A DNA stretch of 64,000 nucleotides, from NCBI GenBank assembly GCA_964016885.1, contig OZ024740.1:213528001-213592000 (forward strand). The letters run 5' to 3'. Position 1 is the first letter of the stretch, and each line of letters opens with the position of its first letter. Source of the stretch: Eledone cirrhosa (taxonomy: Eukaryota). The notes beneath the pieces were generated by a model. It was not told the DNA's origin, made no database searches, and was given only the letters and a program-made list of their open reading frames with translations. Both the position numbers and the translations under genes were made by a program. This document shows positions 2,286-64,000 of the stretch, in pieces.

Positions 2286-2951
2286 ATGGTGGCTGCCAAC
2301 TCGTTTTCGAGTACGGCCACTACTTTATATCCATGTAGGAGAACCCCTACTGATGCGCTGAACGAGTGTGACCCTCCAGTCCAGCCAGCGACTTGAAAGC
2401 TCTGGTACAAACACTACACTTGTGACAATTATTGACACATAGTGCTGGGCCCATGGTACCATGTGACGACAAATGCAGAGAGATCTCCAGATATAAAGCA
2501 ATGCCTGTGCCGTGAAGCTTTTATAGTGAGCAAAGGCACTGCACAAAGCCAGTCCCACTCTCTTAACCAAGATGATATTTACCAAAAAGAAGAACAAGTC
2601 AACATCATTGGATACCATCAGGGTTGCAGGTGTTATATCAGAGTCTTCCTTCTCCTAGAATTCTGCCTTGACAAAGGCTAAGGGGTCATCTCTCCCGGTG
2701 ATTTTGGATGGCCATTGACTCTTAAGAGCTCCTTTGCCTTTTGACAGGTTTTGTTTTTAGTCCTGCAGGATGTCCAAAGCCACCCTCCTCACCAAGAAAC
2801 CTTGGTGGGGTTGCCAGTTTAGTCGCCAACGACCCGACCATGGGACAGGTTGTACTGGAATACATGAATACTCGCCCAGCGCACCAGCAGGGGCCCCCCC
2901 ACATGGACACAAAGCAGTGGCCGCACCCGAAAACGAGCCGGCAGCCACCAT
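2286..2951. mobile_element. Element bounded by 82-bp inverted repeats, one arm A-to-G hypermutated; interior resembles a LINE 5' UTR on the - strand
   Basis: 2286-2367 versus the reverse complement of 2870-2951: 15 mismatches, all A/G; flanked by (TA)n-type arrays. Confidence 0.75.
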
Positions 2952-3249
2952 GCACATACATATATATGTATATATATACACATGTACACACACATATATG
3001 TATATACACACATATGTATATATATATATATGCACACATACACATACACACACACATACATACATATATACATACACACATACACACACATATACATATA
3101 CATATATATACATATATATATATATACATATATACATATACATATATATACACACACACATACATATATATATACATACATATATACATACATATATATA
3201 CATATATATATATATACATATATATACACACATATATATACATATACAT

Positions 3250-3485
3250 CTTTTTCTTCCTCTATTACTAATATAAATACTTCAATTTTTCTGATTTTAT
3301 CCAATTTATCCAAAATCTCTGAAGAAGTGACAACTGATTATACATTTGCTATCGAATACTTGCTAACATTATATGATTACACAAGCAGCGATACATAGGT
3401 ATTCCGTCTGTTACAGAAACATATGTCAATACCTAATAAATTCCTTTTTTAAAAAAAGCACTTTCATTTTATATTCATCCTTTCT
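3250..3485 (+). repeat. ~235-bp direct repeat (copy 1) with a long-stem-II hammerhead-like core
   Basis: Near-identical to 4492-4727; CTGAAGA at 3319, GTGACA...TGTTAC stem, GAAA-CATATG-TC at 3416-3427. Confidence 0.7.
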
Positions 3486-3588
3486 ACATTTTCTCCGGAA
3501 TATAATTTATACTCGTTGAGCAAACCTGCACGTACGCTGCTCATCTCTAACGTAACGATATATTATCACTACATTATTGATAACCTGA

Positions 3589-3875: not shown

Positions 3876-4266
<391 letters not shown>

Positions 4267-4491: not shown

Positions 4492-4727
4492 TTCTCTTCT
4501 TCCTTTCTTACGACTAATATAAATACTTTGATTTTTCTGATTTTTTCCAATTTATCCAATATCTCTGAAGAAGTGACAACTGATTGTACATTTGCTATCG
4601 AATACTTGCTAACATTATATGATTACGCAAGCAGCGATACATAGGTATTCCGTCTGTTACAGAAACATATGTCAATACCTAATAAATTCCTTTATAAAAG
4701 CACTTTCATTTTATATTCATCTTTTCT
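4492..4727 (+). repeat. ~235-bp direct repeat (copy 2) with a hammerhead-like core
   Basis: Near-identical to 3250-3485; core at 4565-4673. Confidence 0.7.
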
Positions 4728-4749
4728 ATATATATATATATATATATAT

Positions 4750-5298: not shown

Positions 5299-7371
<2,073 letters not shown>

Positions 7372-22189: not shown

Positions 22190-22238
<49 letters not shown>

Positions 22239-22304
22239 GTATATATATATGTATATGTATATATATGTATATGTATATATATGTATATATATATATATAT
22301 GTAT

Positions 22305-22350
<46 letters not shown>

Positions 22351-22351
22351 G

Positions 22352-22382
<31 letters not shown>

Positions 22383-22397
22383 GTATATATATATATG

Positions 22398-22442
<45 letters not shown>

Positions 22443-22597
22443 GTATATATGTATATGTATATATATATATGTATATATATGTATATATATATATGTATAT
22501 ATATATATATGTATATGTATATATATGTATATGTATATATATATATGTATATGTATATATATATATATGTATATGTATATATATATATATGTATATG

Positions 22598-22631
<34 letters not shown>

Positions 22632-22700
22632 TGTATATGTATATATATATATATGTATATATATATATGTATGTATAAATATATATGTATGTATAAATAT

Positions 22701-22764
<64 letters not shown>

Positions 22765-22971
22765 GTATATATATATATGTATATATATATATATGTATAT
22801 ATATATATGTATATATATATATATGTATATATATATATGTATATATATATATGTATATATATATATGTATATATATATATGTATATATATATATGTATAT
22901 ATATGTATGTATATGTATATATATATATATGTATATGTATATGTATATATATATATATGTATATGTATATG

Positions 22972-23005
<34 letters not shown>

Positions 23006-23033
23006 TGTATATGTATATATATATATGTATATG

Positions 23034-23067
<34 letters not shown>

Positions 23068-23078
23068 TGTATGTATAA

Positions 23079-23150
<72 letters not shown>

Positions 23151-23253
23151 GTATATATATATGTATATATATATGTATATATATGTATATATATGTATAT
23201 ATATATGTATATATATGTATATATATATGTATATATATGTATAGATATATATG

Positions 23254-23338
<85 letters not shown>

Positions 23339-23357
23339 GTATATGTATGTATATATG

Positions 23358-23597
23358 TATCATCATCATCATCATCATCAACGTTTAACGTCCGTGTTCC
23401 ACGCTTGCATGGGTTTGGACGGGGGTAGTCCCACTTGAGGCAAGAGTGATTGTCTTGCTCGCATAGGACTGTCTGGCAGGTTTTCTACAGCTGGATGCCC
23501 TTCCTAACACCAACCACATTTACAGTGTGGGTCTGGGAGGTTTTTACCGTGTTGCCTACACGGCCACATTACAGCGTGGACTGTGTGTTTTTTTGTC
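23358..23597 (-). mobile_element. RTE 3' UTR fragment
   Basis: Near-exact reverse complement of 12484-12720. Confidence 0.9.
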
Positions 23598-23652
23598 TGT
23601 ATGTATATATGTTTTGACTGTATGTATATATATATGTATATATATATATATG

Positions 23653-23699
<47 letters not shown>

Positions 23700-23700
23700 G

Positions 23701-23799
<99 letters not shown>

Positions 23800-23810
23800 G
23801 TATATATATG

Positions 23811-23863
<53 letters not shown>

Positions 23864-24189
23864 GTATATATATATATGTGTATATATATATATGTATATA
23901 TATATATGTATAGATATATATATATATGTATAGATATATATATATATGTATAGATATATGTATAGATATATATATATATGTATATATATATGTATAGATA
24001 TATATATATATGTATATATATATGTATAGATATATATATATATATGTATGTATATATGTATAGATATATATATATATATGTATGTATATATGTATAGATA
24101 TATATATATATGTATATATATATGTATAGATATATATATATATGTATATATATATGTATAGATATATATATGTATGTATATATGTATAG

Positions 24190-24223
<34 letters not shown>

Positions 24224-24597
24224 GTATAGATATATATATATATATGTATGTATATATGTATAGATATATATATATATATATGTATGTATATATATATGTA
24301 TGTATATATATATGTATGTATATATATATGTATATATATGTATGTATATATATATGTATGTATATATATATGTATGTATATATATATGTATATATATATA
24401 TGTATGTATATATATATGTATATATATATATGTATATATATATATGTATGTATATATATGTATATGTATATGTATATATATGTATATGTATATGTATATA
24501 TATGTATATGTATATATGTATATGTATATGTATATATGTATATATATATGTATATATATATATGTATATATATATATGTATATATATATATATGTAT

Positions 24598-24629
<32 letters not shown>

Positions 24630-24676
24630 GTATGTATATGTATATATATGTATGTATGTGTATATATATGTATGTA

Positions 24677-24709
<33 letters not shown>

Positions 24710-24910
24710 GTGTATATATATATATATATATGTATGTGTGTATATATGTATGTGTATATATATATATATGTATGTGTGTGTATGTATATGTATGTGTGTA
24801 TATATGTATGTGTGTATATGTATATGTGTATGTGTGTATATATGTATGTGTGTATATGTATATGTGTATGTGTATATATATATATATATATGTATGTGTA
24901 TATATATATA

Positions 24911-24955
<45 letters not shown>

Positions 24956-62640: not shown

Positions 62641-64000
62641 CAGACAATCCGAACTTATACGGAAGGGAGCACAGACAGTCGGAACATATACGGAAGGGAG
62701 CACAGACAGTCGGAACTTATACGGAAGGGAGCACAGACAGTCGGAACATATAGGGAAGGGAGCACAGTCAGTCGGAACATATACGGAAGGGAGCACAGAC
62801 AGTCGGAACTTATACGGAAGGGAGCACAGACAGTCGGAACATATAGGGAAGGGAGCACAGACAGTCGGAACTTATACGGAAGGGAGCACAGACAGTCGGA
62901 ACTTATACGGAAGGGAGCACAGACAGTCGGAACTTATACGGAAGGGAGCACAGACAGTCGGAACATATACGGAAGGGAGCACAGACAGTCGGAACATATA
63001 GGGAAGGGAGCACAGACAGTCGGAACATATAGGGAAGGGAGCACAGTCAGTCGGAACATATAGGGAAGGGAGCACAGACAGTCGGAACTTATACGGAAGG
63101 GAGCACAGACAGTCGGAACTTATACGGAAGGGAGCACAGACAGTCGGAACATATACGGAAGGGAGCACACACAGTCGGAACTTATACGGAAGGGAGCACA
63201 GACAGTCGGAACATATACGGAAGGGAGCACAGACAGTCGGAACTTATAGGGAAGGGAGCACAGACAGTCGGAACTTATACGGAAGGGAGCACAGACAGTC
63301 GGAACATATAGGGAAGGGAGCACAGACAGTCGGAACTTATACGGAAGGGAGCACAGACAGTCGGAACATATACGGAAGGGAGCACAGACAGTCGGAACTT
63401 ATACGGAAGGGAGCACAGACAGTCGGAACTTATACGGAAGGGAGCACAGACAGTCGGAACATATAGGGAAGGGAGCACAGACAGTCGGAACATATACGGA
63501 AGGGAGCACAGACAGTCGGAACTTATACGGAAGGGAGCACAGACAGTCGGAACATATACGGAAGGGAGCACACACAGTCGGAACTTATACGGAAGGGAGC
63601 ACAGACAGTCGGAACTTATACGGAAGGGAGCACACACAGTCGGAACATATAGGGAAGGGAGCACAGACAGTCGGAACTTATACGGAAGGGAGCACACACA
63701 GTCGGAACATATACGGAAGGGAGCACAGACAGTCGGAACTTATACGGAAGGGAGCACAGACAGTCGGAACATATACGGAAGGGAGCACAGACAGTCGGAA
63801 CATATACGGAAGGGAGCACAGACAGTCGGAACTTATACGGAAGGGAGCACACACAGTCGGAACATATACGGAAGGGAGCACAGACAGTCGGAACTTATAC
63901 GGAAGGGAGCACAGACAGTCGGAACATATACGGAAGGGAGCACAGACAGTCGGAACTTATACGGAAGGGAGCACAGACAGTCGGAACATATACGGAAGGG
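62641..64000. repeat. 31-bp minisatellite running off the window end
   Basis: Unit cacagacagtcggaac(t/a)tata(c/g)ggaagggag, about 44 copies. Confidence 0.96.

Follow-up and report, generated by a model that had tools for sequence, protein, structure and literature searches.

In a 64,000-nt stretch of Eledone cirrhosa DNA (hereafter the window; assembly GCA_964016885.1, contig OZ024740.1, positions 213,528,001 to 213,592,000 of the forward strand), a young retroposon copy abuts an inverted second copy of its own 3'-terminal sequence, in which most As have become G. Judging from the sequence comparisons, the probable origin of this structure (probability about 0.8) is an ADAR-edited RNA that was reverse-transcribed and fixed in the germ line, so that inosines would now be present as G in inherited DNA. 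This reading, which a first-pass annotation had put forward for a single arm, is supported by the polarity of the changes, by the ADAR genes of the host, by further hyper-edited copies and by a strand and neighbour bias across the family; the feature is real in the assembly, and the reading is extended from one arm to a family of elements.

The inverted arms and the direction of change

The features of the locus, in window coordinates, are as follows.

2265 to 2285, no strand: (TA)n run, tail and/or target of the insertion, and likewise the point where the left-hand repeat naturally ends in (TA)n (from the sequence)
2286 to 2866, minus strand: body of the copy, 581 nt of a 612-nt non-autonomous retroposon of the young subfamily, without about the first 30 nt of the 5' end
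2286 to 2367, minus strand: left arm, corresponding to the sense-strand 3' end of the retroposon (82 nt); identical in 29 of the 29 closest copies, 0 of 22 sense As changed
2353 to 2424, minus strand: C2H2 zinc-finger remnant directly before the stop and a 3' UTR of about 60 nt (from translation, and from Pfam on sister copy L027)
2373 to 2377, minus strand: A-run with four of five As changed to G, 6–10 nt outside the duplex; variant present in only seven genomic places
2498 to 2866, minus strand: 5' part of the element in its putative bipartite build, common to diverged relatives, which stop at about element position 213
2645, minus strand: lone A-to-G change (comparison with sister copy)
2780, minus strand: lone A-to-G change with G as 5' neighbour; a minor variant in older copies too, so it may be ordinary
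2858 to 2874, plus strand: junction with three extra bases and a six-base word present twice (2858–2863 and 2866–2871); unique in the assembly
2870 to 2951, minus strand: right arm, an inverted duplicate of the last 82 nt of the element, 15 of 19 As changed to G; unique in the assembly
2952 to 3031, minus strand: tail that follows the inverted arm, made of five 16-nt units of (AT)7AC type; 12 of 40 dinucleotide units carry G at A positions, aperiodically
3032 to 3249, no strand: remaining purine-pyrimidine tract with 66 AT, 42 GT and 1 GC on the minus strand; either edited (AT)n or ordinary target microsatellite

Realignment of 2286–2367 with the reverse complement of 2870–2951 reproduced a gapless match of 82 nt with 15 mismatches, every one of them A on the left and G on the right, and confirmed the earlier count of 15 converted As among 19. 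The changes lie at 2875, 2876, 2884, 2888, 2894, 2895, 2897, 2900, 2908, 2910, 2915, 2924, 2927, 2938 and 2939; all six U-preceded As (TA) of the right arm were converted, and the surviving As were those that had been listed before. While the A-to-G direction was borne out, the strand required correction: the right arm shows T-to-C changes on the plus strand, which are A-to-G changes on the minus strand, the sense strand of the element. The claim that only one arm was edited holds for the arms themselves, with 15/19 minus-strand As changed on the right versus 0/22 on the left (Fisher p 6e-8), but changes go on in the body and the tail. The associated statement that A content is back to normal beyond the duplex was wrong, as four of the five As at 2373–2377, the As at 2645 and 2780, and 12 of 40 tail units are also changed on the same strand. 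An evenly edited hairpin is disfavoured because of the asymmetry between the arms, of which the right one possesses a perfect 82-bp partner that is itself unedited.

Ordered by 5' neighbour, the right-arm changes amount to 6/6 after U, 3/3 after A, 5/6 after G and 1/3 after C, with the first A of the arm counted separately. The full 5' neighbour order of ADAR is U>A>C>G; in the arm, change is near saturation and the ranks of G and C are reversed relative to this order, and the pattern (with G at 5/6) is weak evidence for ADAR. The probability that all 15 of 15 changes should be A to G by chance is about 2e-20, given that only 53 of the 1075 substitutions counted across the 120 unbiased copies are A to G.

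The polarity of the changes was established by comparison with other copies. A family consensus with G at the changed sites, which the first-pass annotation had named as the finding that would speak against its reading, was sought and not observed: none of the 29 closest copies departs from the left arm in its first 87 nt, and at all 15 sites A is the majority base of the unbiased sample (counted over 136 aligned pieces, before removal of duplicates). Since sister copies carry A, the G-rich arm is derived; on these comparisons the right arm is taken as the derived state and the left arm as the state of the family. A search of the whole genome assembly for the G-rich arm pattern returned one place, the window locus itself. 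APOBEC-type DNA editing (sense G-to-A) was rejected, as the polarity runs from A to G.

Junction, body and tail of the window copy

At the 5' end of the window copy, three bases and an inverted duplicate of element positions 82 to 1 stand in place of the usual terminal 30 nt, and the six-base repeat at this junction has the appearance of a slip at a stall. An assembly search for the junction of an unedited parent gave one match, again the window locus itself. Both ends of the insertion lie in microsatellite, and in L015 a paralogous copy of the left flank likewise ends in (TA)n at the same point.

Six positions distinguish the body from sister copy L027, all of them T to C on the plus strand and thus A to G on the sense strand, corresponding to an editing level of 6/157 As; such a cluster would arise by chance with a probability of 1e-5. 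Beyond the arm, a purine-pyrimidine tract of 298 nt contains only six Cs on the minus strand, which recur with a strict periodicity of 16 nt, while the Gs of the tract are aperiodic; as the Cs are periodic and the Gs are not, G was laid over a periodic array. The tail has a G share of 0.30, compared with a median of 0 and a maximum of 0.22 in 71 sister tails of at least 60 nt. The 15 changes of the arm, six of the body and 12 of the tail thus add up to 33 A-to-G changes on one strand (minus, sense).

The tails of the 149 young-subfamily copies were searched for a donor of the 16-nt-periodic tail. Sister copy L022 (G000:C2:359.73 Mb) possesses a G-free tail with five 16-nt intervals as well as two of the body changes of the window copy; it also has 12 extra bases ahead of the element and two body variants absent from the window copy. 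Furthermore, the young copy L205 carries a similar 16-nt-periodic block adjoining the element, with a tail that is G-free or G-poor.

The retroposon family

Window 2286–2866 matches many genomic places at 99% identity (3556 candidates, of which 40 were scored), and matches to one 33-nt segment alone indicate at least 22,659 copies of the element. On the minus strand, the element ends with the zinc-finger remnant and a stop, followed by a UTR of about 60 nt and a microsatellite tail; the zf-C2H2 Pfam match on copy L027 has an E value of 9e-5, which is under the curated cut-off. All 149 young copies, which were picked by closeness to the window copy or by an unchanged zinc-finger peptide, begin at the same 3' end, and 70 of them are shortened at the 5' end. 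The minus strand was accordingly assigned as the sense strand on the grounds of an invariant 3' end, truncation at the 5' end and the zinc-finger remnant. The subfamily is young, with 73 of the 149 copies free of any substitution.

The element combines high copy number, a fixed 3' end, variable 5' truncation and a microsatellite tail, features of RTE-type bipartite LINEs, and 25 of 51 matches to diverged relatives end at element positions 200–224. On this analysis the element would fit the build of a bipartite non-autonomous LINE, and 'RTE-like' is used here as a resemblance. Bipartite non-autonomous LINEs derived from RTE, Ingi, Vingi and R2 elements have been described (PMC5786205), as have microsatellite tails of RTE elements (PMC6007223); as portrayed there, they share with the Eledone element a length of about 600 nt, a 5' part followed by the 3' end of an ORF and UTR, a microsatellite tail and 5' truncations. 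They differ in that no autonomous partner was found here, and the likeness does not fix the clade. The search for an autonomous LINE partner yielded no protein relative, and no long ORF behind the diverged 5' parts; a 654-aa frame in L146/L267 was rejected as its ORF, being translated microsatellite. No ribozyme or other real Rfam family was detected on the window or on copy L027, and the hammerhead core motif was absent from both strands of L027, so that membership among Penelope-like elements or retrozymes was not indicated.

Other hyper-edited copies

The A-run variant of 2373–2377 occurs in seven places, and three of the six others (L034, L037 and L038) bear further clusters; L033, L035 and L036, which make up the rest, were not counted as hyper-edited. 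A search pattern that forces three sense A-to-G changes at UA sites retrieved six copies, versus 0.02 expected from single-site frequencies, while its mirror retrieved 0 copies genome-wide. The genome-wide search for the antisense pattern in the arm region returned the window locus only. An additional hyper-edited copy (L056) was met among the 120 unbiased copies, and this one in 120 suggests that hyper-edited copies number in the order of a hundred or more in the family, with a wide error.

Ten such copies other than that in the window were pooled, revealing 118 sense A-to-G changes versus five mirror changes among 185 substitutions; the sense A-to-G count is 79 when the sites forced by the search are left out. 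Sense A-to-G changes account for 30 of 35 substitutions in L044 and for 7 of 7 in L045. The ten copies belong to at least two subfamilies, have few other variants in common and are spread over at least seven chromosome-scale contigs and one small contig. Rates of change by 5' neighbour were 0.098 for U, 0.083 for A, 0.065 for C and 0.036 for G (G lower, p 0.027). Constant protection of the last 82 nt was not supported, as 11 of 209 As are edited there in the other copies, against which the 0/22 of the window copy is ordinary (P 0.30).

The link between hot spots and predicted pairing was weak (rho 0.20; fold z -0.9 to -1.35), and among the pieces found around nine hyper-edited copies no inverted copy lay within about 5 kb. 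In the fetched DNA, other repeat families showed no A-to-G run of five or more in 232,105 comparable positions, which is a small sample. As a separate observation, 27 of 114 unbiased copies, from several backgrounds, have C for T at element position 135 (window 2420), a position also changed in hyper-edited copies and therefore a candidate for a recurrent editing hot spot or for the mark of an edited source copy.

Strand and neighbour bias across the family

The unbiased sample comprises the first matches on contig C1 (120 copies, with related carriers merged by a rough rule), and the search segment (119–151) and six subfamily sites were left out of the test. In these copies, sense A-to-G origins (86/14007) exceeded the mirror class (48/13873; p 0.0013), and the excess was pronounced after U, with 31/2649 versus 5/2656 (p 7e-6). 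Other pairs of substitutions were close to symmetric: non-CpG C-to-T and G-to-A changes were level (144 vs 121), while T to A and T to G were slightly above their mirrors (52 vs 38 and 29 vs 18, respectively). The neighbour order U>A>C>G was observed in the pooled edited copies, and the family-level test also gave this result in the 120 unbiased copies; the neighbour-base bias that the first-pass annotation had proposed to look for is thus present at family level, U-favoured and G-poor. Additionally, per-site frequencies in hyper-edited and ordinary copies are correlated (rho 0.42, p 4e-7). Outside element positions 65–235, the sense excess was absent from the 149 young copies (4 sites vs 5; 8 carriers vs 16).

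The host, an octopod with ADAR genes in its genome, encodes an intact ADAR: an ADAR2 exon is 96% identical to that of Octopus vulgaris and has intact catalytic motifs, and three further deaminase loci are present.

The tails of 106 unbiased copies are also polarised, with sense AT/GT units of which 509 are of GT type versus 65 of the mirror type. Editing of (UA)n might account for such tails, as might a tail unit that is encoded; an origin of the polarised TA/CA tails as edited (UA)n was not upheld, as tail and body editing were not linked (n=41, rho -0.14, p 0.38).

Possible routes from edited RNA to the window locus

Two routes by which edited RNA may have given rise to the locus were weighed, and the odds that we infer are nearly even, with a slight lean towards a fold-back parent. 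In the latter route, an earlier insertion would have come to a halt with about 30 nt of the 5' end uncopied, whereupon the stalled strand would have folded back, copying its own first 82 nt and the tail. A minus-strand transcript of this fold-back parent would then have been heavily edited in its antisense arm and tail, and the edited fold-back RNA would have been retrotransposed to a (TA)n site from its unedited 3' end. This 3' end may either have escaped editing, or reverse transcription may have started on an unedited sister RNA, in which case a crossover would be placed near element position 83–87. The route is favoured by the base of the right arm at element position 66, which is that of the young subfamily and is present in only 9 of 111 unbiased copies, and by joints at 2866 in DNA reads of X22, another sample. 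These reads contain fold-back joints 2804–2866 (63 reads) and 2858–2866 (37 reads), each with two start places, and the joints at 2866 represent the same stall point in other copies. Against it, the assembly contains no such parent, and the bare 3' arm calls for an extra step.

The second route, which is possible and close to the template switch that the first-pass annotation had suggested, involves two templates. A lightly edited sense RNA would have been copied up to a stall near the 5' end, followed by a jump to a separate, hyper-edited antisense read-through RNA from another copy, of which the last 82 nt and the tail would have been copied. The probability of this route, a minority share, is part of that given above for the edited-RNA reading rather than additional to it. 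It accounts for the restriction of the changes to one arm and for the uniqueness of the junction, with no need for a lost parent, and the levels of change in the body (6/157) and in the last 82 nt (0/22) are ordinary for edited copies (11/209; P 0.30). Furthermore, one 113-nt contig of run X4 (a run of unrecorded kind, possibly RNA) lies on the arm with seven differences, indicating that antisense-edited molecules may exist apart from the window locus, and L022 combines its G-free tail and five 16-nt intervals with two shared body changes. However, a random antisense partner would have the young-subfamily base in only 9 of 111 cases, and the mismatches of L022 (12 extra bases and two variants), together with the similar block of L205, mean that its match may be due to chance.

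Alternatives to an edited RNA

An assembly or polishing artefact, in which the G-rich arm would be absent from the DNA of the animal, is improbable. Depth over 2878–2905 was zero in X1 and X2 contigs and in X22 raw reads, but these samples may be other individuals and the filter of the comparison drops records, so gaps in cover prove nothing. In the bin 2871–2877 depth was small and not zero (3.0, 2.0 and 1.1 for X1, X2 and X22, respectively), which could represent an unedited junction in those samples. While both observations speak for an artefact, errors do not yield pure one-strand A-to-G changes with ADAR-like neighbours at ten further loci, nor do they explain the strand bias of the 120 copies. 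Moreover, the absence of the locus from other individuals is expected because the subfamily is so young (73/149 copies substitution-free).

A change at the DNA stage is, if anything, slightly less probable still. According to this explanation, a second cDNA, primed from the other end of the target, or a fold-back copy underwent deamination by ADAR while in an RNA:DNA hybrid, or the reverse transcriptase placed G opposite U when dATP was low, as in misincorporation by dNTP imbalance. The arm starts exactly at the 3' end of the element and has a tail, like a primed cDNA, and deamination of DNA by ADARs at A-C mismatches has been reported for model hybrids (PMC12925331). Against this, antisense A-to-G clusters would be expected in ordinary copies, and the two pattern searches for them gave the window locus only; antisense A to G after U is the rarest class (5/2656); the six body changes have the opposite cDNA polarity and are left unexplained; and the tail of the arm was not copied from the present left tail. 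Finally, an ancestral G with G-to-A change in the left arm, ordinary mutation or an older subfamily is refuted by the A of the sister copies, the single genomic occurrence of the G-rich pattern and the chance probability of about 2e-20.

Comparison with known systems

Repeats are the chief substrate of ADAR, which converts A in dsRNA to inosine, a base that is then copied as G (PMC5625713). In a frog repeat, up to 65 of 77 As were edited (PMC5625713), which places the 79% editing of the right arm within the published range, and the ADAR signature includes G-poor 5' neighbours (PMC2873906). Hyper-editing by ADAR in transcriptomes is alike in that its clusters occur in inverted repeats (PMC5625713; PMC9068888); such edits stand in RNA against an unedited genome, whereas the Eledone marks stand in the genome. 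SINEs are the dominant repeats of octopus, and cephalopod editing has been proposed to serve as a defence against transposons (PMC5625713 and PMC9068888 for the former, PMC9068888 for the latter).

The nearest parallels are A-to-G hyper-edited DNAs of avian retroviruses, namely the U3 region of Rous-associated virus and an inverted repeat of avian leukosis virus (Felder 1994; Hajjar and Linial 1995, as cited in PMC12925331). In these clones, too, ADAR-type A-to-G clusters were put into DNA by reverse transcription, in one case in an inverted repeat. As summarised there, they are single viral clones, while the Eledone case concerns a non-LTR, non-viral germ-line retroposon with many independent copies and a family-wide bias. 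Endogenous LTR elements edited by APOBEC (Knisbacher and Levanon, PMC4866542; Zaranek et al., PMC2873906) similarly show deaminase clusters in genomic copies that are polarised by sister copies and strand-biased. Those fossils, as these reports present them, are G-to-A changes from cytidine deamination of cDNA in vertebrate LTR elements, in contrast to A-to-G changes on the RNA strand of an invertebrate non-LTR element; 19 invertebrate genomes served as a negative control and were at noise level for APOBEC-type editing (PMC4866542). ADAR1 is described as restricting L1 without editing it (PMC5974252; PMC12925331). Searches of the open-licence literature turned up no earlier description of ADAR edits that had become fixed in genomic copies of non-LTR elements.

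Inversions by twin priming and self-annealed inverted duplications are known for L1 (10.1101/2024.12.14.628481). The window locus resembles L1 twin priming, as outlined in that source, in having an inverted piece at the 5' junction and homology on the scale of two bases; it differs in that twin priming inverts the 5' remainder without duplication, while here the 3' end of the element and its tail are duplicated and the duplicate is edited. A twin-priming 5' inversion was consequently rejected for the locus, the inverted piece being a duplicate of element positions 1–82. No other inverted duplicate of the 3' end was present among the fetched loci. Elsewhere in the family, inversions of twin-priming type were seen in L036, L049 and L121 (also in L101, L053, L161, L184 and L243), three of which break at about element position 469, and L071:1040-2114 contains two near-full copies, palindromic at element positions 71–78, both without the 3' end and with no clear editing.

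Implications of probable editing marks in genomic DNA

RNA editing is generally taken as non-heritable. Edits of cephalopods in particular are treated in PMC7703385 as not directly inherited; here, editing marks appear to have been fixed in DNA via a non-LTR retroposon. If so, ADAR would meet retrotransposition-competent RNA in germ cells and the edited RNA would still be copied, and editing would constitute a strand- and context-specific class of mutation in a family of 22,000 copies. The edits could additionally serve as a barcode for the strand and the number of RNA molecules behind an insertion, and the proposed anti-transposon role of cephalopod editing, as put forward in PMC9068888, becomes testable from genomes alone. 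Caution is also warranted in read-based surveys, where genomic A-to-G copies can mimic RNA editing.

A broader proposal, which we advance tentatively and hold at a little less than even odds, is that ADAR editing of retroposon RNA in the octopod germ line acts as a standing mutational force. It would have left on this family about a hundred or more hyper-edited fossils, lightly edited copies would supply much of the common A/G variation in the family, and heavy editing of the antisense arm would free the 3' end of a fold-back RNA for retrotransposition. If true, the activity of ADAR in the germ line and its preference for sites would be recorded, with dates, in the genome.

Other features of the window

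Several further features were noted in the window. Two older reverse-transcriptase fragments (1–627 and 6097–6729) lie in inverted orientation and are about 75% complementary, and other interspersed families form direct repeat pairs of 90–94% identity (3249–3489 with 4495–4731, and 3985–4177 with 7099–7278). A short repeat at 1461–1490 contains a hammerhead-like core, possibly a remnant of Penelope type. Long AT/GT tracts with G confined to one strand extend over 22193–24951, and a tandem array of 29-nt units occupies about 63600–64000.
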